From Dehalococcoidia bacterium (GTDB lineage Bacteria; Chloroflexota; Dehalococcoidia; Lucifugimonadales; UBA3495): a stretch of 64,000 nucleotides of DNA. How positions within the stretch are numbered: position 1 is the stretch's first letter; every line of letters begins with the position of its first letter. The notes beneath the pieces were generated by a model, which worked only from the letters and a program-made list of their open reading frames with translations, was not told the DNA's origin and ran no database searches. The translations under genes and the position numbers were made by a program. The stretch covers positions 264,091 through 328,090 of the forward strand of contig CBDBHA010000001.1 of the NCBI GenBank assembly GCA_965205495.1, in the 5' to 3' direction. Shown here one piece after another: positions 4,963-43,931 of this stretch.

Positions 4963-5721
4963 ATGCCCTCCGAGATACGCGCTATAGGAATTGAAGGCAT
5001 CCCGGAAGTCAAGGATGGGGATGACGTTGCGGCCCAGATAATGGAGGCTGCCGAGGCGCAGGGAACCGTTTTGGAGGACGGGGACATATTGGTGGTGACT
5101 CAGAAAATAGTCTCCAAAGCGGAGGGGCGGGTGGTGAGTATCGACAGCGTGGAGGCGTCGCCGTTGGCGGAGTCGATTTCGGAAGGCCACCGGCGGGACC
5201 CACGGCATACGGAATTGGTGCTGCGGGAGAGTAAGCGGATTGTGCGAATGGACCGGGGAGTGATAATCAGCGAGACTCATCACGGGTTCAACTGCGCCAA
5301 CGCGGGTATTGACGCTTCCAATATACCCGGGGAAGGGACGGTGGCGTTATTGCCAGTGGACCCGGACGCATCGGCCAGGGGGATACGGGGGGCGATAAAA
5401 AGGGCGTTGAACGTTACGGTGGCGGTGATAATTTCGGACACCTTTGGGAGGCCGTGGCGGAACGGGGCTACCGACGTGGCGATTGGGGTGGCGGGAATTG
5501 AACCGATGTTGAGCTACGTGGGGCAGGAAGACAGCTACGGCAACATGATGCACACCACGGTTATTTGCGTGGCGGATGAGCTGGCGGCGGTAGCGGAACT
5601 GGCGGGAGGAAAGGTGGCGGGAGTGCCGGTGGTGGTCGTCAAGGGGTATGCCTTTGAGGAAAGCGACGACGCCGACCATTGGCCGTTGGTGCGGGAGCCG
5701 GACAAGGACTTGTTCCGGTAG
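4963..5721 (+). CDS. cofE: Coenzyme F420:L-glutamate ligase (CofE / FbiB N-domain type)
   Basis: 252 aa. Motifs DGDILVVTQKIVSKAEGR, GFNCANAGID, ISDTFGRPWRNG are typical of CofE. Confidence 0.85.
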   Translation: MPSEIRAIGIEGIPEVKDGDDVAAQIMEAAEAQGTVLEDGDILVVTQKIVSKAEGRVVSIDSVEASPLAESISEGHRRDPRHTELVLRESKRIVRMDRGVIISETHHGFNCANAGIDASNIPGEGTVALLPVDPDASARGIRGAIKRALNVTVAVIISDTFGRPWRNGATDVAIGVAGIEPMLSYVGQEDSYGNMMHTTVICVADELAAVAELAGGKVAGVPVVVVKGYAFEESDDADHWPLVREPDKDLFR

Positions 5722-5730
5722 CGGGCGGGG

Positions 5731-6813
5731 TTAGAAGCCTGGGAAGGGCAGGGTCAACTGCCATTCCTGTTGGAAGGACGATACGCCAACGCCGATAAGA
5801 CGGAAGGCCCGACCGGGGGCCAATTCGCCTTCGGTCAACCGCCAAGCGGTATTGAGGACGGTCTCGCCGGAATCGGTGGGGGCGTTGAGGGTTGCCTGAC
5901 GGGTGAAGGTGGTGAAGTCAGCGAGGCGGAGCTTGACGGAGACGGTCTTGCCGCGCAGGCCCTTGTTTTCCAGGCTTTGGGCGACCCGGTGAGAGAGGCG
6001 GGACAAGACCTGGTAAAGCTCTTCCGAGTCGCTGAGATCGGTGGCGAAGGTGGTTTCAGCACTAACGGACTTGGTATCACGTTGGGTATGGACCGGGTCC
6101 CGTTCCTCGCCCCGGGCCATGGCCCGGACGCCGGGGGCGCGTTTGCCAAAGAGGGCGATGAGGCGGTCGATGGGCAGGGCGGCGAGTTGGGCGACGGTGT
6201 GAATATTTTCGTGGTTAAGGCGTTCCACCGCCTTGGGGCCGATGCCGGGGAGTTTACCGGCGGGTAAGGGGGCCAAGAAGGCGGCTTCTTCTCCGGGGGG
6301 CACCACCACGAGGCCGTTGGGTTTGCGGAGGTCGGAGGCGATTTTGGACACCGTCTTGCAGACGGAAGCGCCGATGGAGATGTCGAGGCCGGCCTGGGAT
6401 TTGACCTGGTCTTTCAGGCGGGCGGCGATGGTGTGGGGGTCGAGGCCACCGGCGGCGACGGGGGAAACGTCGAGGAAGGCTTCGTCGAGGGACAGGGGTT
6501 CGACGTCGGGGGTCAAATCCCGGAAGATGTCCATGATTTGTTGGGAGAGGCCGCGGTAGCGGTCGAAGCGGGGGCGGACGATGATGGCCTGGGGGCAGAG
6601 GCGGACGGCGGTGGCCATGGGCATGGCGGAGTGGGCGCCGAACTTGCGGGCTTCGTAGGAGGCGGTGGCGACGACGCCTCGGGACTGGGGGCTGCCGCCG
6701 ACAAGGACCGGTTTGCCCCGGTATTGGGGGTTGTCCATCTGCTCGACGGCGGCGTAAAAGGCGTCGAGGTCGGCGTGGAGGATGCAGCGTAATTCCGGCT
6801 GGCAGGTGGTCAT
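5731..6813 (-). CDS. dinB: DNA polymerase IV (Y-family)
   Basis: 360 aa. ILHADLDAFYAAVE, PVLVGG, SLDEAFLDV and GIGP helix-hairpin-helix motifs. Confidence 0.9.
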   Translation of the reverse strand: MTTCQPELRCILHADLDAFYAAVEQMDNPQYRGKPVLVGGSPQSRGVVATASYEARKFGAHSAMPMATAVRLCPQAIIVRPRFDRYRGLSQQIMDIFRDLTPDVEPLSLDEAFLDVSPVAAGGLDPHTIAARLKDQVKSQAGLDISIGASVCKTVSKIASDLRKPNGLVVVPPGEEAAFLAPLPAGKLPGIGPKAVERLNHENIHTVAQLAALPIDRLIALFGKRAPGVRAMARGEERDPVHTQRDTKSVSAETTFATDLSDSEELYQVLSRLSHRVAQSLENKGLRGKTVSVKLRLADFTTFTRQATLNAPTDSGETVLNTAWRLTEGELAPGRAFRLIGVGVSSFQQEWQLTLPFPGF

Positions 6814-9441: not shown

Positions 9442-9491
9442 ACCTTCCCGAAGATATTGTGGCTCGTCTTCATTATCGTTTATCGCGCTGT

Positions 9492-9500
9492 TGCTATAAT
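9492..9500 (+). promoter_or_regulatory. Extended -10 promoter (TGcTATAAT) for the ParA-like/HEPN pair
   Basis: TG at 9492-9493 and a perfect TATAAT at 9495-9500, 28 nt upstream of the ATG at 9529. GGAG RBS lies 7 nt before the ATG. Confidence 0.5.
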
Positions 9501-9528
9501 GGCAACAGGTTTGGCCTGGAGACGGAAT

Positions 9529-10578
9529 ATGACAAAGCGGATCGCCCTGTTCAATCATAAAGGTGGCGTTAGCAAGACAACCACCACCTTCAACCTCGGG
9601 TGGATGCTGGCGGAAAAAGGGCATAGGGTTGTACTTGTGGATGCTGACCCACAATGTAACTTGACCGGGATGGTATTCGGCTTTGGTGGCCCAGAACTTG
9701 AGGACTTCTACGAGAACGAGAAGGGACGCAACCTAAAAGACGGATTGGCTCCGGCATTTGAGTCCAGACCTGAACCTCTTAAGGCGGTAAACTGCGTTCC
9801 GGTTGCTGCGCGGGATGGGCTTTTTCTCCTGCCTGGCCACATCGGGCTATCCGAATACGAAGTCACCTTGGGAATTGCCCAGGAACTCTCCGGTTCGATC
9901 CAGACACTCCAGAATCTGCCGGGTTCTATAGCCCGCCTACTTGAGTTGACAGCCGACAATCATGGAGCGGACTATGTCCTAGTAGACCTTAATCCAAGCC
10001 TTAGTTCATTGAACCAGAACTTGCTGCTGACGAGCGACGGCTTCATCGTTCCAACCAATCCAGACTATTTTTCAGCTATGGCGGTTCAATCACTGGCCAG
10101 AGTCTTGCCAGATTGGGGAAAATGGGCAAAGCGTGCGACACAATTCCACGTCCTGAGGGACGCCGTGTATCCATTTCCCGATGTAACTCCCAAATTCCTG
10201 GGTACCATTGTCCAAAACTACCGTCCCAGAGACGGCAAACCCGCCAGCGCTTTTCAAACGTGGATTGAAAAGATTGACGCGACCGTATCCGATGACTTGT
10301 TTCCACGACTGAAGGAAGCGGATATGACACTTCCTGAACATATCTATGTCGAATGCGGATTAGAGAATCTTTGTCTAGCCAGGATTTCCGACTTCAATTC
10401 TTTAATTGCCAAATCGCAAGAACATCAAACCCCGGTGTATGCGTTGACCCCCGCGCAAATAGCCCAGCGCGGTTCGGTGCTTAGTAAAACGGTAGAGTCG
10501 AGGGATAACTTCAAGGACATATTTTCCGATTTAGCGGATAAGGTCGTCTCTCTAATGGGTCATGCAAATAACCCTTGA
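9529..10578 (+). CDS. ParA/MinD-superfamily P-loop ATPase, about 349 aa with a long C-terminal extension
   Basis: Deviant Walker A: MTKRIALFNHKGGVSKTTTTFNLG. Also VLVDADPQCN and Walker B-like YVLVDLNPS. Start set at the Met preceded by GGAG. Visibly lower GC than the flanks. Confidence 0.8.
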   Translation: MTKRIALFNHKGGVSKTTTTFNLGWMLAEKGHRVVLVDADPQCNLTGMVFGFGGPELEDFYENEKGRNLKDGLAPAFESRPEPLKAVNCVPVAARDGLFLLPGHIGLSEYEVTLGIAQELSGSIQTLQNLPGSIARLLELTADNHGADYVLVDLNPSLSSLNQNLLLTSDGFIVPTNPDYFSAMAVQSLARVLPDWGKWAKRATQFHVLRDAVYPFPDVTPKFLGTIVQNYRPRDGKPASAFQTWIEKIDATVSDDLFPRLKEADMTLPEHIYVECGLENLCLARISDFNSLIAKSQEHQTPVYALTPAQIAQRGSVLSKTVESRDNFKDIFSDLADKVVSLMGHANNP

Positions 10579-11209
10579 ATTATTCCGAGCCAATATCCGG
10601 CGGTCACGGGATCTAGTTAACCTTTTCCTGGCAATGGGCAATCAAACCACGGCAGCATTGGACCTTTCCGACATCCTGCGAGCTGCCCTGGTAATGTCGG
10701 TGAGTGCTTTGGATCACTTTGTTCACGAGATCGTTAGATTGGGTATGCTTGAGGCCTACCAGGGGTACAGGGCTAGAACTGGGGCATTCTTGCAGTTTCC
10801 AGTCACGATTGAAAGTGTGATTGGTTTGCCTTCCAACTTTGAATTCGAGGATCGGTTGGATAGCCACATTAGAGCCCGTCACGGCTATCGAACCTTTCAA
10901 CTGCCGGGCCAAATCGCCGACGCAGTCCGCCTGATCTCGGATGTGGAGTTATGGAACGAATTATCCGGACTTACTGGTATGGAAAGACGAGACTTGACAG
11001 ATACCCTCATTCTTATCGTTCAATGCCGCAATAAAATTGCCCATGAGGCGGACATCATGCCTGACTACGCTGGGCAGTTGGTAAATTCAGATTCGCGCTC
11101 TCCTATAGACGAAAATACCGTGAATCAAGCCGTAGACACCATTGAGCGAATCGCCGAGGGGATTTATGGCTTGGTTTCGTTAACCGATTCGGCCGCATCA
11201 ACTGGCTGA
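10562..11209 (+). CDS. Putative HEPN-domain protein (Rx4H motif RNKIAH)
   Basis: 215 aa. Overlaps the upstream ATPase gene by 17 nt. Helix-rich composition. C-proximal CRNKIAHE (R156..H161, nt 11027-11044) fits the HEPN Rx4-6H motif with a polar residue after R. Confidence 0.55.
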   Translation: MQITLELFRANIRRSRDLVNLFLAMGNQTTAALDLSDILRAALVMSVSALDHFVHEIVRLGMLEAYQGYRARTGAFLQFPVTIESVIGLPSNFEFEDRLDSHIRARHGYRTFQLPGQIADAVRLISDVELWNELSGLTGMERRDLTDTLILIVQCRNKIAHEADIMPDYAGQLVNSDSRSPIDENTVNQAVDTIERIAEGIYGLVSLTDSAASTG

Positions 11210-12696: not shown

Positions 12697-13422
12697 ATGC
12701 CGTCATTTTGGGAGAATCTTCAAGTAGATGGGCAGGATATGGCGGTTTATTCCAGCGTGCCCAGCGGCTCCGGTCCTTTTCCGGCGGTGGTCATTGCTCA
12801 TCCGGCCAGCGGAGTGGCGGAGTTTACCCAGAGCATCGCCGACCGGCTGGCGGAAGCGGGTTACGCAGCGGCGGCGCCGGACCTGTTCCACCGAGTCACC
12901 GAGGAGATGATGGCCGATGGGACGGCCCGCAACGCCTTTTTGCAGGACGCGGAGATTGTCGCCGACATCAACGCCACGGTGGACTGGCTGCAGGGGCATC
13001 CGGCTATTGTGGGCGAGTCAGTTGGAATAATCGGCTTCTGCATGGGTGGGCGGGTAGCCTGGCTGGCGGGGGCGACCAACCCGCATCTGCAAGCGGTGGT
13101 GCCCTACTACCCGGGCAATCTTTGGGCGGCAAGGGGCGACGGCCGAGAGTCGCCGTATGAGTTGGCCAACGGGATTCAAGCTCCCATGCTGGTCCATTTT
13201 GGGGAGGTGGACGAGAACCCCTCCCAGGACGACATGCGGAAACTGGATGCGGAGTTGGACCGGTTGGGTAAGGCCCACCAGTTTTATACCTATCCAGGGG
13301 CGGGCCATGCTTTCATGGACTTTGGCCAGCCGCCTCGGTACCAGCGGGAGGCCGCCGATGCTTCATGGCCGCGAACGTTGGAGTTTTTCGCGGCGCACCT
13401 GAGCGGGATGGCGGCGGCCTAA
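12697..13422 (+). CDS. Dienelactone hydrolase family protein (paralog 1)
   Basis: 241 aa. GPFPAVV, GFCMGG nucleophile elbow, YPGAGHAF. Confidence 0.8.
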   Translation: MPSFWENLQVDGQDMAVYSSVPSGSGPFPAVVIAHPASGVAEFTQSIADRLAEAGYAAAAPDLFHRVTEEMMADGTARNAFLQDAEIVADINATVDWLQGHPAIVGESVGIIGFCMGGRVAWLAGATNPHLQAVVPYYPGNLWAARGDGRESPYELANGIQAPMLVHFGEVDENPSQDDMRKLDAELDRLGKAHQFYTYPGAGHAFMDFGQPPRYQREAADASWPRTLEFFAAHLSGMAAA

Positions 13423-13477
13423 CCCGGCAGCCGGGCCGGGGAAAAGTTGCAGATAATTGGAGTAGGAGGGTAACCGT

Positions 13478-14209
13478 ATGCCATCTTTCTGGGAGAAGCT
13501 TGAAGTAGACGGCAGTGAAATGGACCTTTACGCCAGCGTGCCCAGCGGGTCGGGGCCATTTCCGGCGGTGATAGTCAGCCAGCATGGTGGAGGGGTGGAC
13601 CAGTTCATTCAGACCATCTGCGACCGGCTGGCCGAGGCGGGATATGCCGGGGTTGCGCCGAGCCTGTACCACCGGGTTGCGCCGGAGGTTTTGGGTGGGG
13701 ACCCGCGGCCCAGCCCCTGGGACGTGCTCAACGACCCGGAGACCATCGCCGATATTGGGGCGACGGTGGAGTTTTTGCGGGCCCATCCGGGGATTGACGG
13801 GGAGCGCATTGGCATTACCGGGTTCTGCATGGGGGGACGGGAAGCCTGGCTGGGGGCGGCTACCAACCCGCACATCAAGGCCGCCGCGCCCTACTACGGC
13901 GGGAACATTCTGGTGCCCTGGGGTTCGGGAACGCAGTCGCCTTTCGAGTTGGCCGGCGGCATCAAGTGTCCGGTGCTGTTCCACTTTGGAGAACTGGACG
14001 TTAACCCTTCGCCGGACGACATGAAGACCTTTGACGATGAACTGGCGCGACTGGGGATTCCCCACACGTTCTTCACGTACCCAGGAGCGAACCATGCTTT
14101 TATGGACTTCACGGCGGGGCGGTTCCACCAGGAATCTTCGGATACATCCTGGCCGCGGACGCTGGAGTTTTTCGACCAACACCTAAAGGGGGCGGCGGTG
14201 GCCAGCTAG
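13478..14209 (+). CDS. Dienelactone hydrolase family protein (paralog 2)
   Basis: 243 aa. Collinear with paralog 1 (MPSFWEKLEVDG.., GFCMGG, YPGANHAF). Confidence 0.8.
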   Translation: MPSFWEKLEVDGSEMDLYASVPSGSGPFPAVIVSQHGGGVDQFIQTICDRLAEAGYAGVAPSLYHRVAPEVLGGDPRPSPWDVLNDPETIADIGATVEFLRAHPGIDGERIGITGFCMGGREAWLGAATNPHIKAAAPYYGGNILVPWGSGTQSPFELAGGIKCPVLFHFGELDVNPSPDDMKTFDDELARLGIPHTFFTYPGANHAFMDFTAGRFHQESSDTSWPRTLEFFDQHLKGAAVAS

Positions 14210-14278
14210 CCTGGCTTGCGGTTGCCGGGATAACCGACCAAGGGGAATTGACGAACCGTTTAATGAGAGGACGTTGTA

Positions 14279-14788
14279 ATGGCAAGAGTATCTTATAACC
14301 TGGAAGACAAGGACGACCTTAAGGCGCTGGGGACCTCGGGCTGGCGGCGAGCCATGGGGCTGGTGCCCGGCGAGCCGAACCAAGGTCTGGTGGCGGAATT
14401 GAAGGAGACGCCGGCCCGGACCGCCGACTATGACGATTCGGGGTGGGACAAGGACGTGGACATTCAAGACCGGCTGTCGACGGGCTTGACCTTTGCCTGG
14501 TACCGGATCAATGTGACCGTTCCCGCCGACGCGAAGGGGGAGAGCATGGATGGCCGCCGGTGCTGGTTTGAGACCAACGTGGACAACTACGGCGAGGTCT
14601 ACATCGACGGGGCCATCGACCGGAACCAGGGAGTGGTAACGGGGAACAACGTGGGGAAGCGGCTTATAGTGGCGGACCCGGCGACTCCCGGCGCCACCCA
14701 CACCATCGCGGTGCTGGTGGGGAACGCCCCTCTGGGAGAGCCGGTGGGCACCATTTTCATGCGTTACGCCACGCTGGCTTTTGAGTAA
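14279..14788 (+). CDS. Hypothetical protein, galactose-binding-domain-like jelly roll
   Basis: 169 aa. DDSGW ... FAWYRINVTVP ... NVDNYGEVYIDG resembles a GH2 sugar-binding-type module. Confidence 0.5.
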   Translation: MARVSYNLEDKDDLKALGTSGWRRAMGLVPGEPNQGLVAELKETPARTADYDDSGWDKDVDIQDRLSTGLTFAWYRINVTVPADAKGESMDGRRCWFETNVDNYGEVYIDGAIDRNQGVVTGNNVGKRLIVADPATPGATHTIAVLVGNAPLGEPVGTIFMRYATLAFE

Positions 14789-14903
14789 CCGTTAACTCGG
14801 CGGGTCCGGTCCGGCTTCTCCGGTGGGGGAAGGTACGGGCCGGACCGCAATTATGGCCCCTAAGCAAGAAACCGCGGCCCTGGAGCCGCCGGAGCAGATT
14901 GTT

Positions 14904-16388
14904 ATGACCAGCAGGTCCTTTGCGGGTAAGGTAAGCGCTCCCGAGTTTCCCGACGGGTTGGAATGGGTCAACACGGACCGTCCGTTGACGCTAGCTGAGC
15001 TGCGGGGAAAGATAGTCATTCTGGACTTTTGGACCTACTGTTGAATCAACTGCGTTCATGTGTTTCCGCAGTTGCGGAAAATCGAAGAGAAGTACGTCAA
15101 TGAATTGGCGGTAATTGGGGTCCACTCGGCCAAGTTCCCCAACGAGAAAGAGAAGGAAAATCTTTACAAGGCGGTGCAGCGGAACGAGCTGCGGCACCCG
15201 GTTTTGAACGACTCGGAGTTTCAGGTATGGAAGCAGTACGCGTGCCGGGCCTGGCCGACGATGATGTTCATCGACCCGGAAGGGAAGGTCATCGGCAAGC
15301 ACGAAGGAGAGATTGCCTTCGAGTCGTTGGACCAATTGATAACCAACATGGTGTCGGAATTTGACGCCGAAGGGTTGATTCGCCGGACTTCGTTGGGGTT
15401 GGCGGTGGATGACGCGCCGGCGGAGCTGCTCTCCTTCCCGGGCAAGGTCCTGGCGGATGGGGCGTCGGAGAGATTGTTCATCGCCGACACCAACCACAAC
15501 CGGGTCCTGGTTACGTCGTTGGACGGCCAGGTGCAGCAGGTGTTGGGTTCGGGCAGAGTGGGGTTGGACGATGGAAGCGGGGGAGTGGCCACGTTCAACC
15601 ACCCCCAGGGGATGGCGCTGGACGGGGATACGCTGTACGTGGCGGATGCGGAGAATCATGCCATCCGCCGGGTGGATCTAGCGGCGGGGCAGGTTGCTAC
15701 CATCGCAGGGAACGGGAACCAGGGTCACCAGCGGGAGGGCCGGGGGCCCGGCTTGCAGATGGAGTTGAACTCGCCCTGGGACTTGGTGTACCACGATCAG
15801 GCGTTGTACATCGCCATGGCCGGCACCCACCAGCTTTGGTCGATGACGCTGGGAAACCAGCAGGTGGGGCCCTACGCCGGGACCGGCGGGGAGAACATCA
15901 CCAACGGGCCGCTGGCCACCGCGACGCTGGCGCAACCCAGCGGGATAACCACCGACGGCGAAAAGCTGTACTTTGTTGACAGCGAGACCAGCTCGGTGCG
16001 GTCGGCGGACCTGGACCCCAACGGGCGGGTGGCGACCATAGTGGGGCTGGACCTTTTTGTATTCGGGGACCAGGACGGGGCCGACCACAACGTGCGGTTG
16101 CAGCACCCCCAGGGGATTGCCTGGCTGGACGGGACCATCTATATCGCGGACACCTACAACCACAAAGTTAAGCGGGTGTTGCCGCAGACGCGGAGCGTTT
16201 TTACCCTGTTGGGCACCGGACAGGCGGGGATGGAGGACGGGCCGGGGAAGCAAGCGAGGTTTTCCGAACCCAGCGGGTTGAGCTTTGCGGGCGGGAAACT
16301 GTTCATCGCCGACACCAACAACCATGCCGTTCGGGTGGCCGACCTGGAGGCGGACCGGGTGTGGACCCTGGAGATAAGCGGGCTTTAA
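14904..16388 (+). CDS. Thioredoxin-fold + NHL-repeat protein (NHLRC2-like), with an in-frame TGA (15042-15044) read as selenocysteine
   Basis: ORFs 14823..15044 and 15060..16388 are in the same frame, separated only by TGA. Context DFWTYC-TGA-INC corresponds to the family CxxC redox motif. Downstream [12 protein letters not shown] and repeated NHL blades (FNHPQG, LNSPWD, LAQPSG, LQHPQG, FSEPSG). Start could be 14853 or 14904; GGAG lies 9 nt before 14904. Confidence 0.7.
15047..15074 (+). promoter_or_regulatory. Candidate bacterial SECIS hairpin
   Basis: Perfect 8-bp stem caactgcg (15047-15054) / cgcagttg (15067-15074) with a 12-nt loop ttcatgtgtttc. It begins 3 nt after the TGA. Confidence 0.5.
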
Positions 16389-16520: not shown

Positions 16521-17783
16521 TTGGCAGCCCGCGGACCAACCAACGTACCGGCCCTGGCGGTCTTGCAAGACCGGGACTTCCGCGCCATGTGGTACGCGGG
16601 TGGGGTGCACGAAGTTTCCCGGCGCATGGAGCTGCTCATCCTGAGCTGGCTCATTTTGCAGACCACCGATTCGCCCTTTATGTTGGGGCTGGTGTTGGTC
16701 TTCAACAACGTTCCCCGTCCCGTTTTTTCCCTCTTTTCCGGGCTGGTGGCCGACCGGTTCAGCCGGTACCGGGTCTTGATGTTGTCCCAAACCTTCAACA
16801 CCCTGGTGGCGGGGACGGTGCTGCTGCTCATCGTGATGGAAAACATTGAGCCGTGGCACGTTTTTTTTGCGGTGTTCATGCAGGGGTTAACCAAGTCTTT
16901 GGAGGACCCGTCACGGCGGACGGCCATCATGGACATTGTGGGGGAGCGGCGGTTGGTCAACGCGTTGTCCCTGGACCAGATGAGCAACACCATCGGCAAG
17001 ATGTCGGGGCCGCTGCTCGGGGGCGTGCTGGTGGACGCTGCCGGATACAACGGGGCCTATATTTTGGTAGTGGTGGCAAACCTGGCAGCCCTGGGTTTTC
17101 TGGCCAGGGTGAGGATTCCCTTTTACCGGAGGGTGGTGGGGCAGGTTGAACCGGTGTGGCGGAGCTTGGCCTTCAGCCTGCGGCACGCTCTTCACCACCC
17201 GGCGTTGTTGGCGATGCTTTACGTGACCATTGTGATGAACGCACTGGCCTTTCCGGTGCAGCAGTTCATCCCGGCAATTGGCCGGGACCACCTGATGGTG
17301 GGTGCGTCGTTGGTGGGGCTTTTGGCGGCGGCGGAAGGTGTGGGGCAGATGATCGGAGCCGCGTTGATGGCGATGACCCGCAACCTGCAATACCACGGGC
17401 GGGTCTTCATGATTGGGTCAACCATCGTTCTGATTATGGCGATTATGTTTGTGTGGTCGCCCTGGTACGCATTGTCGTTTTCATTGCTGACCATTGCCGG
17501 GGTGGGGCAGGCGGGGTTTGGGACGATGCAGAGCAGCATCACGATGCTTTCGGCGCCCCGGGAACTGCGGGGAAGGATGATGGGGCTGATGAGCTTCTGC
17601 ATTGGAGTGGGGACACCGTTGGGCACCTTGGAGATTGGGGCGGTGGCGGCGGCGTTCAGCACCCCCTGGGCGATTACGGTTAATGCCGTTGCGGGGCTGG
17701 TCCTGCTGCTGCCGGCGTTGTTTTTCACGCCCCTAGTTTGGCGGCCAACGGCGCAACCGGAGGCGGCGACAGTCCGGGAATAG
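16521..17783 (+). CDS. MFS transporter
   Basis: 420 aa, 12 predicted TM segments. N-terminal FRAMW..SWLIL pattern as in enterobactin-exporter-like MFS proteins. TTG start. Confidence 0.75.
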   Translation: MAARGPTNVPALAVLQDRDFRAMWYAGGVHEVSRRMELLILSWLILQTTDSPFMLGLVLVFNNVPRPVFSLFSGLVADRFSRYRVLMLSQTFNTLVAGTVLLLIVMENIEPWHVFFAVFMQGLTKSLEDPSRRTAIMDIVGERRLVNALSLDQMSNTIGKMSGPLLGGVLVDAAGYNGAYILVVVANLAALGFLARVRIPFYRRVVGQVEPVWRSLAFSLRHALHHPALLAMLYVTIVMNALAFPVQQFIPAIGRDHLMVGASLVGLLAAAEGVGQMIGAALMAMTRNLQYHGRVFMIGSTIVLIMAIMFVWSPWYALSFSLLTIAGVGQAGFGTMQSSITMLSAPRELRGRMMGLMSFCIGVGTPLGTLEIGAVAAAFSTPWAITVNAVAGLVLLLPALFFTPLVWRPTAQPEAATVRE

Positions 17784-17957: not shown

Positions 17958-18073
17958 CGGGAATAGGCGGTTGTTGCAGACGTGGGTTGGAGGGGTTATA
18001 TTCTCGGCTTGGGGGCGGGAGAATTGGGACCGTTGGAGAGGGAGTTACGACTTTAGCCGACTGGCCGGGACGG

Positions 18074-18628
18074 ATGCAGGAGATGGCGGAGTTTGTCGGG
18101 CTTTCGGCAGAGGAACGGGAGCTGATCCGGGAAACGTCGCCGCTGCTGTTGAAGCACGCCGACGAATTGACGGCGGCGATTTACGATCATTTCTTGAAAT
18201 TCCCCGACGCGGCCAGGTTTTTCTTGACCGAAGAGGGGGAGGTGGACCAGGAGCGGATCGACCGGCGGAAGCACAGCCTGGTGCGCTGGGTGTTGGGGTC
18301 GATTGATTTTGACATTGAGGGGGACTTTTCGGTGTTCCTGCTGGCCATCGGGTTGGTGCACAGCCATCCCGGGTCGCATCGGGCGCACCTTGGGTCGGTG
18401 CCCAGCCGGTTTATGATTGGGACCATGTCCTTCGCGCAGACGGCGTTTACCCAATTGCTGCTGGAGGAGATGGAGGACAAGGAAACGGCGTTACGGGCGG
18501 CGGTTGCTTGGAACAAGCAATTCATGGTGCAACTGGACGTGCTGCTGGCGGGATACGTGACGGAGCGGCCCATTGAACCGGAAAGGGCCGGAACGAGCGG
18601 GGGTGAGATTCCCCGGGAAAACGGTTGA
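18074..18628 (+). CDS. Protoglobin / globin-sensor-domain-like protein
   Basis: FVGLSAEERELIRETSPLL..HADELTAAIYDHFLKFPDAARFF..H..L..W, as in protoglobin-family sensor globins. Start set at MQEMAEF. Confidence 0.6.
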   Translation: MQEMAEFVGLSAEERELIRETSPLLLKHADELTAAIYDHFLKFPDAARFFLTEEGEVDQERIDRRKHSLVRWVLGSIDFDIEGDFSVFLLAIGLVHSHPGSHRAHLGSVPSRFMIGTMSFAQTAFTQLLLEEMEDKETALRAAVAWNKQFMVQLDVLLAGYVTERPIEPERAGTSGGEIPRENG

Positions 18629-26581: not shown

Positions 26582-27421
26582 TCAATAGGGATACCTGTCG
26601 CGAGCGCAATTCCAATGCACTGGGCCCGGGGGGTCACCTGTGTGGTAGCATTCGAAATCCCAACTTCCGGGCCATGCCCAGAAAATGGCACTCTGCCAGT
26701 TCTCGGAATTGGGGATGGCATAATTATCAAATTCACCATCGGTCTGAACATATACTGACCCAGGACCGGAAGGCGACCAAGTATAGTAACACGAAATTAT
26801 ATACCACCCAGTGATGAAAGCCCGGCATCGCGTGTTCCTGTCATGGCCTCCACCTACTGTATTGCCGTAGTCGTAGTAGTGCATAAACGCAGTTGTCCTC
26901 GTAAGGTCAATCGAGATGGGTTCTTGTAATGAGGACCGGGCTCCCCCTCGAAATTCATGCGACGTGGCCCCTATGCCATGCCCGGAATGACTTGTCTTAC
27001 TCGACCCATCTTCTTTTGCGCTGGCCTCGGTTCCACCAGCGTCGTCATGAGTCGGGTCATCCAGGGCGTCCGCGCTAAATGCCACCTTTTGCACTGTTAC
27101 CGAGCAGTCGTCGTTCATAGCTATCCTGATCTGCCCGCTTCTATGCGAATCAGTCAGGCCCTCACCTCGGACTGTCATGAAAGGCAGTTCGCACTCCCCA
27201 TCTTGCTTGGGGGTTTTCTCCTTTACGGTAGCGCCTTCAGCGATTTCCGTTTTCTTTCCGTCAATTATGATGTATGCCTTTGGACCAGTTACGTCTTCGG
27301 TGTCCCCTTGATTACCCGTCTGGGCCGTGGCAGTGCCGCCGATAAAAAGGGTAACCGCGAATGCGAGGAGTGCCACAGTAAGCACCCCGTAGACGAAATA
27401 CCTGTTTTTGTGACCAGTCAA
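26582..27421 (-). CDS. Hypothetical secreted/anchored protein
   Basis: 279 aa. N-terminal signal-anchor YFVYGVLTVALLAFAVTLFIGGTATA. Cys/Trp/Tyr-rich C-terminal domain. No family recognised. Confidence 0.5.
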   Translation of the reverse strand: MTGHKNRYFVYGVLTVALLAFAVTLFIGGTATAQTGNQGDTEDVTGPKAYIIIDGKKTEIAEGATVKEKTPKQDGECELPFMTVRGEGLTDSHRSGQIRIAMNDDCSVTVQKVAFSADALDDPTHDDAGGTEASAKEDGSSKTSHSGHGIGATSHEFRGGARSSLQEPISIDLTRTTAFMHYYDYGNTVGGGHDRNTRCRAFITGWYIISCYYTWSPSGPGSVYVQTDGEFDNYAIPNSENWQSAIFWAWPGSWDFECYHTGDPPGPVHWNCARDRYPY

Positions 27422-32451: not shown

Positions 32452-32544
32452 GCTGGGGCCGGTTGAAGGGCTTTTGGGTTTGAGATAAGCTAGCGAGCAA
32501 CGTCCGGGTTGGCAGACCCGGCTTTTTGGTATCGGGAGAGTTCC

Positions 32545-35451
32545 ATGACCACAACAGCGGCCCGCCGGATGCAGGGACGGCAACGGGAAGAACTAGCTGA
32601 GGAAATCCGGCGGCGGGTTAGCGGGGAGGTGCGGTTCGACCCGTTTTCCAGAGTGCTGTACAGCACCGACGCCAGCATCTACCAGATGGAGCCGGTGGGG
32701 GTGGTGATACCCCGGGACGCCGAGGACATTTTGGCGGTGATGGAAGTGGCCCGGGACAATCAGGTGCCGGTGCTTCCCAGATCCGGCGGCACCAGTTTGG
32801 CGGGCCAGTCGGTCAACCATGCCATAGTCATGGACTTCAGCAAATATATGAACCAACTGCTGGAGGTGAATGAGGAGGAGGGGTGGGCCCGGGTGCAGCC
32901 GGGGATTGTGCTGGACCAGTTGAACCGGCAGTTATTGCCTTACAACCTGATGTACGCGCCGGACCCGACCACGGCCAACCGGGCCTGCGTGGGGGGCGGC
33001 ATCGGCAACAACACCTGCGGGGCGCATTCAGTCATCTATGGGAAGACGTTGGACCACGTTAAAGAGTTGAACGTGATTCTTTCCGACGCTTCACCGGCCC
33101 ACTTGCGGGAATTGGAAGGGCGGGAACTGGAGAATATTTTAGAGGGGAGTGGGCTGGAGTCGGACATCTACCGCAACGTTTTGCGGGTGGCGAGGGAGCA
33201 CATACCGGAGATTGAGGCGCGGTACCCGAAGATCATGCGCCGGGTGAGCGGGTACAACCTGGACGATTTCACGGGTTCCGGGCCGGTAAACCTGGCGCGG
33301 ATGGCGGTGGGGTCGGAAGGGACGCTGTGTGTGACCACCGAAGCCAAGGTAAACCTGGTGCCCCGTCCCTTGATGACCAGCCTGGCCGTGCTGCATTTCC
33401 GCGACCTGTTCGTGGCCTGCGAGGCCATCCCGGAAATCTTGAAGCATGATCCATCATCCATCGAGATTTTGGACCGGATGGTGTTGGAGCGGTCCCGGGA
33501 GTCCTTCGGCCATTCCCAAAGCCTGTCCTTCCTGGAGGGAGAGCCCGGGTCCCTGCTGCTCACCGAGTTTTACGGCGAGTCGGAAGCGGAACTTACCGCC
33601 AAAATGGACGCGCTGCGGGCCGATATGTACAGCAAGCGGCTGGCCTACGCCTGCGTCAACCTGCTGGACCGGGGAGCCCAAGCGATGGTCTGGAACCTGC
33701 GGAAAGGCGGCCTGGGGCTGTTGATGAGCACGAAGGGCGACGCTAAGCCCATCCCCTTTGTTGAGGATACGGCGGTTGACCCGGACCGGTTGGGGCCGTT
33801 TATCCGCCAGTTTGATGAGATTGTCCGCAACCACGACACCGAAGCGGGGTACTACGGGCACGCCAGTGTTGGGTGTATGCACATCCGTCCGCTGGTCAGC
33901 CTGAAGAACGCCGAGGGCGTGAGCAAAATGGTGTCCATCGCTGACGAGATCAGCGACCTGGTGAAGGAGTTCGGCGGTTCGCTGAGCGGGGAGCACGGCG
34001 ACGGCATAGTCCGCGGCGTCTACACCGAGAAGATGTTTGGACCGGAGATGTACCAGGCGTTCCGGGAGGTCAAGAAGATCTTCGATCCCCAGGGGATTAT
34101 GAATCCCGGGAAGATTGTCGATTGTCCGCCGATGACGGAGAACCTGCGTTACGGCCCGCGATACAACGCCGCTTCGGTTTCGACCGTCCTGGATTTTTCT
34201 CCGGATGCCAACTACGCGGGGGCGGTGGAGATGTGCAACGGGATGGGGGCGTGCCGGAAGCTGGAGGGGTCCATGTGTCCCTCGTTCATGGCAACGCGGG
34301 ACGAGGAACATTCAACGCGAGGACGGGCCAACCTGCTGCGGGCGGCGTTGTCGGGGCGGCTTCCCGAAGGGAGTTTCACCAGCCGCCGGTTGTACGAGGC
34401 GTTGGACCTTTGCCTGGAATGCAAGGCCTGCAAGACGGAATGCGAGTCCGGGGTGGACATGGCCAAGCTGAAGTACGAGTTTCTGGACAAGTACCACCAG
34501 GCCAACAAGGCGCCGTTGCGGGCCAAGATTTTCGGGCACATCAACGCAATAAACAAGTTGGGCAGCCGGTTCGCGCCTTTTTCCAACTGGGCGGCGGCGA
34601 GTCCGGTGGGAAAATTGGTATCCAGCAGATTGGTGGGGATACACCCCAAGCGTCAAATGCCCCGGTTTGCGGGGCAGTCCTTTGAACAGTGGTTCCGGCG
34701 CAATCGTGGGGCGGGCCTGGCAGCGGGTAAGCGGGGGACGGTGGCGTTGTTCAACGACACTTTCATGAACTACAACCATCCGCAGGTTGGGATTGCGGCG
34801 GTGGAGTTGCTGGAGGCGGCGGGGTACAACGTAGAACTTGCCACCCAGGGTTGCTGCGGGCGTCCGTTGATTTCCAAGGGGTTCTTGGGAGAGGCGGTAG
34901 CGGCGGCGCGGGCGAATGTCGAGATGCTCTACGAGTTTGCCAAGGACGATATTCCAATAATTGGGTGCGAGCCGAGCTGTTTGCTGACCTTCCGGGACGA
35001 GTACCCGGAACTGGTTAAAGATGGGAAGGCGGTCAAGGTGGCGGAAAACAGCTTCTTGATCGACGAGTTCCTGGCGGCGCTGGCGGAACGGGGAGAGTTG
35101 GAGTTGAAGTGGGGCGGTCTGGAGAAGAAGGTACTGTTCCACGGGCATTGCCACCAGAAGTCGTTGGTTGGGACGGCGAGTTCGTTGCAGGTGCTGGGGC
35201 TGCCGCCCAATTACCAAGTTGAGCTAATCAACGCGGGTTGCTGCGGGATGGCGGGGTCGTTCGGGTTTGAAAAAGAGCACTACGACGTTTCCATGACCAT
35301 CGGCCAGCAGGCATTGTTTCCGGCCATTGAGGCCAAGGGGCCAGAGTGGGAGGTGGCGGTAATGGGAATCTCGTGCCGGCAACAGGTGGAGCACGGAACG
35401 GGAAGGCGGGCGCGGCACCTGGCGGAAGTTCTGCGGGACGCGCTGGCGTAG
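32545..35451 (+). CDS. FAD-linked oxidase fused to a 4Fe-4S/CCG (GlcD-GlcF-like) domain oxidoreductase
   Basis: 968 aa from MTTTAARR with a GGAG RBS. FAD-binding PCMH region (PRSGGTSLAGQS), 2x CxxCxxC ferredoxin motifs (CLECKACKTEC), C-terminal CCG repeats (GCCG, AGCCGMAGSFG). Confidence 0.85.
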   Translation: MTTTAARRMQGRQREELAEEIRRRVSGEVRFDPFSRVLYSTDASIYQMEPVGVVIPRDAEDILAVMEVARDNQVPVLPRSGGTSLAGQSVNHAIVMDFSKYMNQLLEVNEEEGWARVQPGIVLDQLNRQLLPYNLMYAPDPTTANRACVGGGIGNNTCGAHSVIYGKTLDHVKELNVILSDASPAHLRELEGRELENILEGSGLESDIYRNVLRVAREHIPEIEARYPKIMRRVSGYNLDDFTGSGPVNLARMAVGSEGTLCVTTEAKVNLVPRPLMTSLAVLHFRDLFVACEAIPEILKHDPSSIEILDRMVLERSRESFGHSQSLSFLEGEPGSLLLTEFYGESEAELTAKMDALRADMYSKRLAYACVNLLDRGAQAMVWNLRKGGLGLLMSTKGDAKPIPFVEDTAVDPDRLGPFIRQFDEIVRNHDTEAGYYGHASVGCMHIRPLVSLKNAEGVSKMVSIADEISDLVKEFGGSLSGEHGDGIVRGVYTEKMFGPEMYQAFREVKKIFDPQGIMNPGKIVDCPPMTENLRYGPRYNAASVSTVLDFSPDANYAGAVEMCNGMGACRKLEGSMCPSFMATRDEEHSTRGRANLLRAALSGRLPEGSFTSRRLYEALDLCLECKACKTECESGVDMAKLKYEFLDKYHQANKAPLRAKIFGHINAINKLGSRFAPFSNWAAASPVGKLVSSRLVGIHPKRQMPRFAGQSFEQWFRRNRGAGLAAGKRGTVALFNDTFMNYNHPQVGIAAVELLEAAGYNVELATQGCCGRPLISKGFLGEAVAAARANVEMLYEFAKDDIPIIGCEPSCLLTFRDEYPELVKDGKAVKVAENSFLIDEFLAALAERGELELKWGGLEKKVLFHGHCHQKSLVGTASSLQVLGLPPNYQVELINAGCCGMAGSFGFEKEHYDVSMTIGQQALFPAIEAKGPEWEVAVMGISCRQQVEHGTGRRARHLAEVLRDALA

Positions 35452-37852: not shown

Positions 37853-38139
37853 CCCATCACACCCCACACGATGCTTGCGAGGCCCCACGCCTCACCACCC
37901 GGAATGTAAAACGATTGGCGGGAGTTGTCAAGGGGCGTTTGTAAATTGGCGGGGCAATTATCGGATTAACAAACCTACCCCTTGACGAGATTATAGCAGG
38001 GCTACGGTCATTCGGAATATAGGGTAGTCAATTCATCGAGTCTTGGGCAGGACGGGCATTCGTGCCCCCTTGTCGGCTCGATGGTGGATCCGGGTGACCG
38101 TAGCAAGTGCCTGTATCCTGCACCACAAGGGGGTTCCTC

Positions 38140-38898
38140 ATGGCAATTGCTGGTATGGTCCTGGGCATCGTGGCGATTATCTTCGCGTTTGTCCCAGTAG
38201 TGGGTGCGTTTATATCCTTTCCCTGCATCGGGGTTGGATTGCCGCTCGCCATCGTGGGTTTCTTGAGGAATCGCAAAGCCGGACTGGGAACAGGAATGGC
38301 TATCGCCGGGATTGCTACAAATGCTGTTGCACTGCTTATCGTCATTATCTGGTTGGCGGCTGTTGGAGCTGCGTTGAGCGAATTTAGTGATGAGATCGAC
38401 ACAGGGAATGGTGGGAACTTCGGGACCGGCGGCATTGCAGTTCCGGCTTTTGGTGGTATTGACCGGAGCGTTAAAGACAACGTAGGGATGATGGGGCCAC
38501 GTCCCACTGATGGGGAGATTCAGCGCGCTTGCCAAGCCCTACGCCGCGCAGAGTGGGATTTTATGTCCCTGGGAATGAGCACTGATGCTCGGTCTTTGAT
38601 GATAGCGGCATCCATCACACATTTGCATCCGGAGACCGGCTTGTGGACTATTGCGATAGTAAATAACGACACGGTCTGTAAGTGCTCAGGGTTAAGGAGT
38701 CATTCCGTTCCCCTGCCGTCATTCCCGCGAAAGCGGGAATCCAGAAATGGCGAGGATAAGCAACCTTGTCTTCTGCAAAGGGGCTCTGGATTCCGGCTCA
38801 AAGCCTTCCCCGTACCCGATACGGGGGCCGGAATGACGGTTCGGCCGCGGGAACGGCTCATCAAGTCTGAACTGTTACCACGGTCTGACGATAATTGA
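38140..38898 (+). CDS. DUF4190-like small membrane protein; C-terminus replaced and extended by a MITE insertion
   Basis: MAIAGMVLGIVAIIFAFVPVVG..LAIVGFLRNRKAG..GMAIAGIATNAVALLIVII. The last 73 codons are encoded by the MITE at 38678-38887 plus its flank. Confidence 0.6.
   Translation: MAIAGMVLGIVAIIFAFVPVVGAFISFPCIGVGLPLAIVGFLRNRKAGLGTGMAIAGIATNAVALLIVIIWLAAVGAALSEFSDEIDTGNGGNFGTGGIAVPAFGGIDRSVKDNVGMMGPRPTDGEIQRACQALRRAEWDFMSLGMSTDARSLMIAASITHLHPETGLWTIAIVNNDTVCKCSGLRSHSVPLPSFPRKRESRNGEDKQPCLLQRGSGFRLKAFPVPDTGAGMTVRPRERLIKSELLPRSDDN
38678..38887. mobile_element. MITE, family A, 210 bp, with perfect 8-bp TSD cacggtct
   Basis: TIRs gtaagtgctcaggg.. and ..caagtctgaactgttac. TSD at 38670-38677 and 38888-38895. 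Confidence 0.85.
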
Positions 38899-39048
38899 TA
38901 TTCCCCATCAAGGCGGGATATGATAGTGTCGTTGCCCACAATTTGGGCAGAAACATTAGGCAATAGCACAAGGCAAGCAGGGAGGGGAATACCAGCGGGA
39001 GGAGCCGGAGTCCCGCTCGTAATTTACGCGATAAACAGCAGGTGGAGT

Positions 39049-39345
39049 ATGCTGAAAAAGCCTTTGGACCCGATTGCCAACTCGGAAGACTTGGCGACTA
39101 TTGGCGTTTATCTGGATCAGTTCAAGAAGGACACGATGTTCCTGAACGACCATCGGCTTGACTGGACCGAGCAATACCCCGACCAGTGGGTGGTGGTATT
39201 TGGGGAGGAACTTGTGGCGAGAGGGGGGACGGTTGAATCCGCCCTGTGTGCTGCTGAGGAGAAAGATGTCCCCATTCACCTCGCCGCGCTGGAGTACCTG
39301 TCGGGCGAACCCGTCGCCATGATTCTACTTGGGGTTGCTTGTTGA
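39049..39345 (+). CDS. Small DUF5678-like protein (antitoxin-like partner)
   Basis: 98 aa. GGTGGAG RBS. ..YPDQWVVVFGEELVARGGTVESAL.. pattern. Its stop overlaps the start of the next gene. Confidence 0.5.
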   Translation: MLKKPLDPIANSEDLATIGVYLDQFKKDTMFLNDHRLDWTEQYPDQWVVVFGEELVARGGTVESALCAAEEKDVPIHLAALEYLSGEPVAMILLGVAC

Positions 39346-39812
39346 TCCAAGGATATTACGCTGCCCTGCCAGGACTACGCCCGCCCGCACCTTACGTGCG
39401 GGCTTTTGTTGCGTTGCCTGGAGTACGGTTGGGAGGGAACATTGATTTCCTGATTGACACAGGTGCGGACGTTACGTGCCTGCACCCTGGAGATATTGCC
39501 GCCCTTGGGGTGGACGCCAGCATCTTTGATCCTAATACCAGGGTGCAGCACTCGGGAGTGGGGGGAGGTCTGTATTACTATTCCATAGAATCCGCGTTGG
39601 TCTTTGGAGAAGCCGGCGACTGGGTCGTCTGGGCCAACCGGATCAATGTCTGTGATATATGGACCGAGCCCCTCGACCCACTCATCATTCAGCTACCTTC
39701 CTTGATCGGCAGAAACTTCCTGAACCTGTGTGACGTTCGAGCCGATCCCTCCAACAATATTCTTCTCATAGATCCACACCCGCAGGTGGGGTTGATCTTT
39801 CCGGGCAAATAG
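39339..39812 (+). CDS. Retropepsin-like (clan AA) aspartic protease
   Basis: 157 aa. FLIDTGADVTCL (D-T-G-A active-site motif) and C-terminal LIGRNFL. TTG start overlaps the upstream stop. Confidence 0.65.
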   Translation: MLIQGYYAALPGLRPPAPYVRAFVALPGVRLGGNIDFLIDTGADVTCLHPGDIAALGVDASIFDPNTRVQHSGVGGGLYYYSIESALVFGEAGDWVVWANRINVCDIWTEPLDPLIIQLPSLIGRNFLNLCDVRADPSNNILLIDPHPQVGLIFPGK

Positions 39813-43043: not shown

Positions 43044-43931
43044 ATGGTTACTGAGCTTCAAGATAAACGGCTGACCATCGGTTCGGAACGGACCTGCTCC
43101 TGTCCCCCGAAACACATCAATTGTCTGACCGCCAAGGAGTGGATTACCTCTCAATTGGGGGTCTGGAAGTTCTCCTACGAGTCCCGGGACGTTAGGGACA
43201 AGTCGTTGCATCCCGCCACGTTCCCCATATCGCTGGCGAAACAGTGCATTTCGCTTTTTTCTCACCAGGGAGAGCTGGTGCTGGACCCCTTTAGCGGCAG
43301 CGGGACCACGCTGGTGGCGGCGCAAGACCTGGGCCGGAACGGGGTTGGTTTTGACCTGAAACCTGAGTATGTCAACCTGGCGGAGTCGCGTTTGGGCGGC
43401 GGAACGGGGGGCGGGCAAGCGCGGCAATGCGCCGAGTGCGGGGACGCCCGGGAGATTGGGGAATACCTGGAAAACGACTCGGTAAGCCTGCTGTTGACGT
43501 CGCCGCCCTACGCCAATTTGCTGAACCGGCCAAGGATGAACAAGAGCCGGCGCAGCAACCAACGGGACAACGGGCAGCTGAATAAGGTGGAGCAGTACAG
43601 CCAAGACCGGCGGGACCTGGGAACGATGTCCCTGGAAGAATACCAGCAGGCCATTGCGGAAATCTTTGGCGGGCTGCTGCCGCTGCTGAAAGAGAAGGCC
43701 CATTGTGTTATCAACGTGCCGGATATGTGGTGGGAAAACCGGCGGGTAACGATACATATGTCGGTGGTGGACGCGCTCAGGGAAGTGGGTTACGAGTTGC
43801 GGAACACGATAATCTGGGACCGGACCAACATCGTGAACCGGATTGGGATTTTTGGGTGGCCGTCCAACTACATAACCATGGGGACTACGTTTGAGTACCT
43901 GCTGGACTTCTGGAAGCCGCCGGCGTCGTGA
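43044..43931 (+). CDS. DNA methyltransferase (N4-C/N6-A family, SPPY motif), apparently solitary
   Basis: HPATFP..VLDPFSGSGTTLVAA (AdoMet motif I region) precedes LLLTSPPYANL (motif IV). No endonuclease gene is adjacent. Confidence 0.75.
   Translation: MVTELQDKRLTIGSERTCSCPPKHINCLTAKEWITSQLGVWKFSYESRDVRDKSLHPATFPISLAKQCISLFSHQGELVLDPFSGSGTTLVAAQDLGRNGVGFDLKPEYVNLAESRLGGGTGGGQARQCAECGDAREIGEYLENDSVSLLLTSPPYANLLNRPRMNKSRRSNQRDNGQLNKVEQYSQDRRDLGTMSLEEYQQAIAEIFGGLLPLLKEKAHCVINVPDMWWENRRVTIHMSVVDALREVGYELRNTIIWDRTNIVNRIGIFGWPSNYITMGTTFEYLLDFWKPPAS

Follow-up and report, generated by a model that had tools for sequence, protein, structure and literature searches.

NHLRC2 is mutated in FINCA disease. 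[quoted passage not shown] It belongs, together with SOQ1, to a family in which a TlpA-like thioredoxin (Trx) domain is followed by a six-bladed NHL propeller, and its CCINC motif (residues 89-93) marks the N-terminal end of the Trx helix, within a cleft that faces the propeller and beside a conserved cis-proline (PMC6107167). The C-terminal domain of the family is not conserved, and one group of homologs, including bacterial ones, is without it (PMC6107167). The function of SOQ1, whose target chemistry is unresolved, is abolished by either of the substitutions C431S or C434S (bioRxiv 10.1101/2021.03.16.435614). Here we describe a bacterial gene of this family in which the second Cys of CCINC is replaced by an in-frame TGA, found on the forward strand of a 64,000-nucleotide stretch of a Dehalococcoidia bacterium (assembly GCA_965205495.1, contig CBDBHA010000001.1), hereafter the window, to which all positions refer unless a contig is named.

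On the basis of comparative sequence analysis, we consider it very probable (roughly 0.9) that this is a real selenocysteine (Sec)-decoding selenoprotein gene, with an ordinary mechanism that would involve a UxxC Trx fold and a selenocysteine insertion sequence (SECIS) inside the coding sequence. Four observations carry this reading, namely the anatomy of the gene, the alternation of Sec and Cys codons at one column, coding constraint on both flanks of the TGA, and a covarying hairpin that is specific to the TGA forms.

Results

The open reading frames (ORFs) 14823..15044 and 15060..16388 constitute a single reading frame, whose sole interruption is the TGA at 15042-15044 and whose local translation there is D-F-W-T-Y-C-TGA-I-N-C, exactly as an earlier note on this DNA had read it. 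The likely start is the ATG at 14904, which gives a gene at 14904..16388 (+ strand) that would encode 494 amino acids (aa) with Sec as residue 47 and that ends in a TAA stop at 16386-16388. This choice of start is based on a 16-residue comparison, in which it matches the N-terminus of the upstream ORF called in a 70%-identical relative, on the tblastn homology to close relatives, which begins at residue 15-18 (511-aa numbering), and on a possible Shine-Dalgarno sequence, GGAG at 14891..14894, placed 9 nt 5′ of the ATG and recognised from the sequence only. Alternative in-frame starts are the ATG at 14853, from which the predicted Sec would be counted as U64, and the GTG at 14823. Since TGA is the ordinary stop of 15 of the 47 predicted genes in the window, the code is standard and TGA is not globally reassigned; a scan of the window for further genes with an in-frame TGA returned none with a coding signature on both sides.

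For protein searches of the fused product, the TGA was replaced by Cys. The Pfam families Thioredoxin_8, AhpC-TSA and Redoxin match residues 40-160, corresponding to a Trx-like (TlpA/redoxin-type) domain at 14973..15332, and NHL repeats (Pfam NHL, 1.3e-28) define a β-propeller domain at 15429..16382, the number of its blades being taken from the published description of the family. Among solved structures, Arabidopsis SOQ1 matches best, in its lumenal Trx-like/NHL region (7djj; E 1e-125), with an alignment that HMMER extends unbroken over residues 28-510, so that homology does continue across the TGA as the earlier note had supposed. Human NHLRC2 (6gc1) matches residues 26-506, NHL propeller included, with E 4e-117, and residues 193-510 match the NHL-containing chains 7djm (SOQ1) and 6g7w (NHLRC2). 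The predicted product is thus an ortholog of SOQ1 and NHLRC2, with a Trx-like domain and an NHL propeller, and is probably cytoplasmic, as no signal peptide is obvious.

The motif DFWTYCCINC is present in both SOQ1 and NHLRC2, and in the alignment to 7djj the C-U-I-N-C segment of the window gene (15039..15053) corresponds to the CCINC of NHLRC2 (89-93) and of SOQ1 (C430-C434). The TGA aligns with the second Cys, that is with C431 of SOQ1 and C90 of NHLRC2; the residue replaced is therefore the N-terminal Cys of C-x-x-C, giving C-U-I-N-C, which bears out the assignment made in the earlier note. The cis-proline motif is also retained within the Trx-like domain, AWPT of the window protein aligning with SWPT of SOQ1. 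The protein stops directly behind the propeller, with query residue 506 opposite residue 576 of the 579 in the 6gc1 chain, and the C-terminal β-stranded domain is absent.

The same column carries either TGA or a Cys codon across a wide range of genomes, as an alignment of orthologs, proposed in the earlier note, makes evident. Among the best 80 loci examined in GTDB species genomes, TGA is found in 12 (11 from Dehalococcoidia/SAR202 and one from Chloroflexia) and TGC or TGT in 67, the Cys forms belonging to Acidobacteriota, Planctomycetota (including anammox bacteria), Armatimonadota, Binatia, Latescibacterota, Ignavibacteria and three Chloroflexota; some of the Cys forms are from Dehalococcoidia. 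A pattern scan of metagenomes for the TGA form gave at least 120 contigs. In all, TGA occupies this position of DFWTYC[U/C]INC in at least 133 loci, most of them named Dehalococcoidia or SAR202, with 121 distinct 93-nt segments that span 50-100% protein identity. In a neighbor-joining tree of 144 full-length proteins, which is crude and not robust, the Sec forms are scattered over about 15 clades, and parsimony on this crude tree gives at least seven Sec/Cys switches; the pattern of these putative switches fits the known dynamic exchange between Sec and Cys.

The gene does not look decayed in any general sense, in agreement with the first impression of the locus: it is intact in the window, its TGA is widely conserved, and a downstream ORF of 440-583 codons is kept in 83 of the 92 TGA loci whose ORF ends inside the contig. 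Moreover, the 35 codons upstream of the TGA have a codon-position variability of 0.21/0.145/0.435, which is like the 0.27/0.21/0.43 found downstream, indicating that the upstream part is translated in the same frame and is under coding constraint. Two TGA-form metagenome contigs, L084 (Ga0114923_10006453) and L111 (Ga0255057_10000079), differ in that the ORF ends 100 codons after the Sec position, with no NHL propeller in frame; they share the same U-I-N-C Trx domain and an identical tail, ...TTLPLSITTH-TAA, and are explained by a frameshift common to both or, alternatively, by a selenoprotein variant in which the Trx domain stands alone.

Two hairpins can be drawn immediately 3′ of the TGA. 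Hairpin A (15047-15054 / 15067-15074, + strand) has the 8-bp stem caactgcg/cgcagttg and a 12-nt loop, ttcatgtgtttc, and starts at the third nucleotide after the TGA. Hairpin B (15063..15080, + strand) starts 18 nt after the UGA and consists of UUUCCGC (15063-15069), the loop AGUU (15070-15073) and GCGGAAA (15074-15080), in a region that encodes F-P-Q-L-R-K. The two share 15067-15074 and are mutually exclusive. Folded alone, they are similarly stable (A, -10.0 kcal/mol, z = -3.73; B, -9.5 kcal/mol over 15061-15082, z = -3.98), and the minimum-free-energy fold of this region picks B. Published rules for bacterial SECIS elements ask for an apical loop of 3-9 nt on an upper stem of 4-16 bp, a G at either of the two leading positions of the loop, the next base generally being G or U, a UGA-to-loop distance of 16-37 nt, and an energy of -7.5 kcal/mol or lower (PMC13188914). 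Hairpin B satisfies all four, with its 4-nt loop A-G-U-U, 7 bp, a distance of 25 nt (15045-15069) and -9.5 kcal/mol, whereas hairpin A breaks three of them, having a 12-nt loop, no G at the first two loop positions and a distance of 10 nt.

Covariation separates the two hairpins further. For the counts, 116 distinct TGA-form sequences were aligned without gaps, and the results were compared with 500 shuffles. For hairpin B, 85% of the cells are paired and compensatory changes occur in six of the seven pairs, with 69 compensatory cells against 19.8 in the shuffles, a count reached in none of the 500; its covariation score is 0.283, where shuffles give 0.152 and slid partners no more than 0.155. 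For hairpin A, 81% of the cells are paired and there are 4 compensatory cells where 1.6 ± 1.0 are expected, a count reached in 22 of the 500 shuffles; its 5′ arm is made of the protein-fixed I-N-C codons and its 3′ arm belongs to hairpin B. Compensated versions of the hairpin B stem include CUCCCGC/GCGGGAG, CUGCCGC/GCGGCAG, CUCGCGC/GCGCGAG and UGCCCGC-GUU-GCGGGCG, and the GUU of the loop stands at alignment columns 36-38 in 97 of the 116 sequences. When RNAalifold was applied to these 97 sequences it returned hairpin B and never A, the full hairpin B appearing only with a relaxed non-compatibility penalty. In clades without CAGUUG, hairpin A is lost and a different hairpin occupies the position of B, for example CCAGAGC-UGGAC-GCUCUGG, CCUCC-CGGAGCU-GGAGG, or GUUCUGCC-GGUCCUG-GGCAGGAU (CUGCC-GGUCCUG-GGCAG).

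Sec and Cys forms differ accordingly in this region. The folding energy of positions +12..+54 is -11.7 kcal/mol in Sec forms versus -5.0 in Cys forms, and a rule-satisfying hairpin (at least 5 bp, loop G, spacing) is present in 86% of the former versus 10% of the latter. At the protein level, the Sec forms have F/L-P-Q-L-R-K/E where the Cys forms have I-P-D-L-K-K, and third-position variability in the hairpin B codons is down to 0.30 in Sec forms versus 0.47 in Cys forms, so that the RNA structure constrains the protein sequence. Taken together, these data indicate that the SECIS is probably hairpin B, at 15063-15080, and that hairpin A is probably an alternative fold that arises as a by-product. 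The earlier note had placed the SECIS at 15047-15074; the perfect stem that it described exists, with its 12-nt loop, but in the role of SECIS it has to give way to the overlapping hairpin. Confinement of a hairpin to TGA-containing orthologs, which it had proposed to look for, is seen in large part for rule-satisfying hairpins; its own stem has been lost in some TGA classes. Among the Cys forms, one from Dehalococcoidia (L076) has a strong fold just 3′ of its TGC (63 nt, -20.5 kcal/mol, GUGCUUCC...GGAAGUAC), which may be a relic SECIS from a recent Sec-to-Cys switch.

Support for Sec use in related organisms comes from selD. On a marine metagenome contig (L173), 4.6 kb separate the TGA form from a Sec-type selD; this selD (5622-6668 of the contig, - strand) is intact and has an in-frame TGA at the column of the catalytic Cys17 (SHCAG-U-AAKF). 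The selD of contig L203 (9881-10927, + strand) likewise has an in-frame TGA at that column (SHCAG-U-AAK), and in both genes an 8-bp hairpin with a GUU loop is found 30 nt 3′ of the TGA. The best 120 database relatives of the L173 SelD are all N-terminally truncated, at 306-328 aa. One SelD relative (P0358) lies, together with a TGA-form locus (L004), on a single Dehalococcoidia chromosome of 3,302,831 bp, and its upstream sequence reads MPSSELRLTELSHCAG-TGA-AAKISLEDL, so that here too TGA occupies the catalytic column (SHCAG-TGA-AAK); this gene also has a hairpin with a GUU loop. Selenoproteins of the Sec-type SelD family have long been known (PMC1794560), and such a SelD works only if the organism decodes UGA as Sec, which supports Sec use in these relatives; in this lineage Sec-type SelD seems to be widespread and mis-annotated. 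When 1.28 Mb of loci were searched by tblastn with the E. coli SelA, SelB and SelD proteins, the L173 SelD was the single real match. Apparent SelB matches in the loci were to EF-Tu and were rejected. ARAGORN found no tRNA-Sec in the collected homologous loci.

If the gene is decoded in this way, the UGA at 15042-15044 would be read as Sec in an NHLRC2/SOQ1-family protein of about 494 aa. With the ribosome at the UGA, the hairpin at 15063-15080 would recruit SelB carrying Sec-tRNA(Sec); with UGA in the A site, hairpin A, which starts 3 nt after it, would be located inside the ribosome, and hairpin B would be free to fold. In the protein, the attack by the U-I-N-C redox pair would be made by Sec, and the Cys three positions later would resolve the reaction via a selenenylsulfide.

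Alternative explanations

Several results weigh against decoding of this codon as Sec. In the 64-kb window, no tRNA-Sec was found with ARAGORN or Rfam (which gave only tRNA-Glu and tRNA-Ser), Pfam found no sel genes among 30 window ORFs, a part of those in the window, and tblastn with the E. coli proteins gave no match to SelA, SelB or SelD; the support that relatives provide from the Sec machinery consists of selD alone. Frameshifts, a common feature of metagenome assemblies, seem to affect about 6 of the 92 metagenomic TGA loci. With all 116 sequences, RNAalifold yielded no consensus structure, a result that we attribute to the mixture of hairpin classes in different registers. Single-sequence folds of 49-70 nt are not unusual in energy (z = -0.66 and -0.96), which makes thermodynamics alone uninformative. 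Finally, the sequences are related to one another, and their independence is therefore overstated in the shuffle statistics as well as in the Mann-Whitney p-values.

Three other explanations have to be set against a selenoprotein gene with hairpin B as its SECIS. The closest of them retains Sec but assigns the SECIS function to hairpin A, or to A and B acting jointly, and we regard it as unlikely. The stem of A is perfect and as stable as that of B, the share of its cells that can pair across the 116 sequences is nearly the same, and the minimum-free-energy fold of one locus (L053) chooses it; yet its covariation does not stand above that of the shuffles, its arms are explained by the fixed I-N-C codons and by hairpin B, and it departs from the rules for loop size, loop G and spacing. 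Its pairing is lost in the PELEAL, PVLAR and PDLRK classes (those without CAGUUG), which keep a hairpin at the later position, and a stem beginning as close as 3 nt to the UGA would presumably be melted inside the ribosome with the UGA in the A site. A smaller chance still is left to recoding of the UGA to a residue other than Sec, whether to Cys through a tRNA(Sec)-like tRNA and SelB, or to Trp or Cys by near-cognate read-through. Some bacteria have been described in which tRNA(Sec)-like tRNAs, with the help of SelB, insert Cys at UGA, and sequence data cannot tell which residue is inserted. The selD genes with UGA at the catalytic Cys column on the L004 chromosome and on contig L173, however, argue for real selenium use, and a UGA at the column of a redox-active Cys is the classic situation of a Sec/Cys pair.

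We find it hardly credible, and the least probable of the three, that the locus is a pseudogene or contains a sequencing error, with the TGA as a true stop and at most a truncated protein made from the GTG at 15060. Gene callers do annotate exactly this truncated protein, and a few metagenomic copies have frameshifts; the comparative data already contradict this reading, as the same TGA recurs with intact frames throughout the 121 distinct sequences, whatever their divergence, the 35 codons before it are under coding constraint in frame, and the covarying hairpin accompanies TGA forms only. A protein beginning at 15060 would, in addition, lose strand β1 and the entire Trx redox motif.

Public annotation and implications

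Automated annotation divides the gene at the TGA, as the earlier note had predicted: on the 3.3-Mb chromosome of a relative it is represented by ORFs of 46 aa and 444 aa, and all close public entries examined are either split or truncated. About 115 of the best 120 relatives in the protein database (67-100% identity) are 436-459 aa long, start just after the TGA and cover 85-87% of the query; many of the truncated relatives are named Chloroflexi, SAR202 or Dehalococcoidia, and misnamed entries include 'alkyl hydroperoxide reductase', 'YncE' and 'hypothetical protein'. A protein search with the N-terminal 103 aa returned only short Cys-form fragments and no close full-length entry annotated with Sec, a result that is weak either way. 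None of the NCBIfam selenoprotein models matched at its cut-off, the best scores being 54.9 bits versus 170 for ResA and 22 versus 300 for WAxxUGC_long.

Among the papers that could be searched, none links NHL, NHLRC2, SOQ1 or SAR202 with selenocysteine. A 2026 catalogue of prokaryotic selenoproteins makes no mention of NHL, and NHL and redoxin are absent from the main text of the selenoprotein survey from Global Ocean Sampling (GOS), of Peng 2016 and of the deep-Sep paper. The family thus appears to be new as a selenoprotein, although the catalogue entry 'Redoxin family protein, PF08534, UxxC' (HEU0032618.1 and MBA3499694.1), which was compared by its description only, may be the same. Whether the Sec-containing orthologs of NHLRC2 and SOQ1 amount to a widespread, uncatalogued selenoprotein family of Chloroflexota (Dehalococcoidia/SAR202) and of related lineages in soils and the sea is a broader proposition, which we advance tentatively and to which we would assign slightly less than an even chance.

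If this proposition is correct, the repeated placement of Sec at the second Cys of CCINC (Cys90 of NHLRC2, Cys431 of SOQ1) would mark that residue as the catalytic redox nucleophile, and would argue that NHLRC2 is a genuine thiol-redox enzyme despite its inactivity in the insulin-reduction assay. Sec/Cys pairs found in nature classically mark catalytic redox residues, and the present one would point, independently, to the C431-type Cys that was found by mutagenesis of SOQ1. The abundant marine SAR202/Dehalococcoidia lineage would gain a selenoprotein, alongside its Sec-type SelD. In practical terms, dozens of public entries at least, and to judge from the searches hundreds, lack the first ~46 residues and with them the active site; such truncated entries would be put right by a family model that includes a Sec rule. 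The locus also illustrates how a SECIS can be recognised, since hairpins A and B are equally stable in a single sequence and comparative data alone could identify the likely element.

Genomic context

Directly upstream of the selenoprotein gene, the stretch 12697-14788 contains two tandem dienelactone hydrolase genes, at 12697-13422 and 13478-14209, and an ORF of 169 aa at 14279-14788 that has no Pfam match. This gene order recurs in about 20 Sec-form loci, all of which share the SECIS codon patterns that are typical for the clade of the window, and is found in none of the Cys-form loci; lineage-specific synteny seems a better description of it than a clear functional link. The two genes downstream encode an MFS transporter (16521-17783) and a protoglobin-family protein (17987-18628). 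Some 30 kb from the selenoprotein gene and unlinked to it, 44846-45766 (- strand) encodes a pyridine nucleotide-disulphide oxidoreductase (Pyr_redox_2) of 306 aa, the size of a thioredoxin reductase, which is a possible supplier of reductant.

Elsewhere in the window, the ORFs of three stretches (9457-11209, 26582-27421 and 38107-39812) have a much lower third-position GC, 0.53-0.62, against 0.75-0.85 in the rest; a ParA-like ATPase (AAA_31) is among their products, and these segments may have been acquired horizontally. Two genes for DNA methylases (N6_N4_Mtase), at 43044-43931 and 61864-62679, the second fused to an Mrr-like restriction endonuclease domain, are probably components of restriction-modification systems. 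The window further encodes a 980-aa FAD-linked oxidase fused with 4Fe-4S and CCG (GlpC-like) domains (32509-35451), which has no in-frame TGA, and a protein of 1365 aa that matches the IPT/TIG domain (48199-52296).

Comparison with known systems

The predicted protein shares with NHLRC2 (6GC1) and SOQ1 (7DJJ) the two-domain core, the DFWTYC-C/U-INC motif and the cis-proline WPT. It differs from both in having TGA, presumably read as Sec, in place of the second Cys of CCINC and in being without the C-terminal β-stranded domain, and from SOQ1 also in that the haloacid dehalogenase-like (HAD) domain and the transmembrane helix are absent. The candidate SECIS, hairpin B, resembles the bacterial consensus model (bSECISearch) in its loop, where G and then U occupy positions 2-3, but it has no evident bulged U and no sequence similarity to the SECIS of E. 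coli fdhF, and in several clades the hairpin at this site has another shape. As in known UxxC selenoproteins of the thioredoxin fold, the putative Sec takes the position of the N-terminal Cys of CxxC, the predicted SECIS follows closely within the coding sequence, and Cys-containing orthologs occur in other lineages. Unlike in those proteins, the Trx domain here carries a fused NHL propeller, and the predicted Sec has an additional Cys immediately before it, giving C-U-x-x-C.

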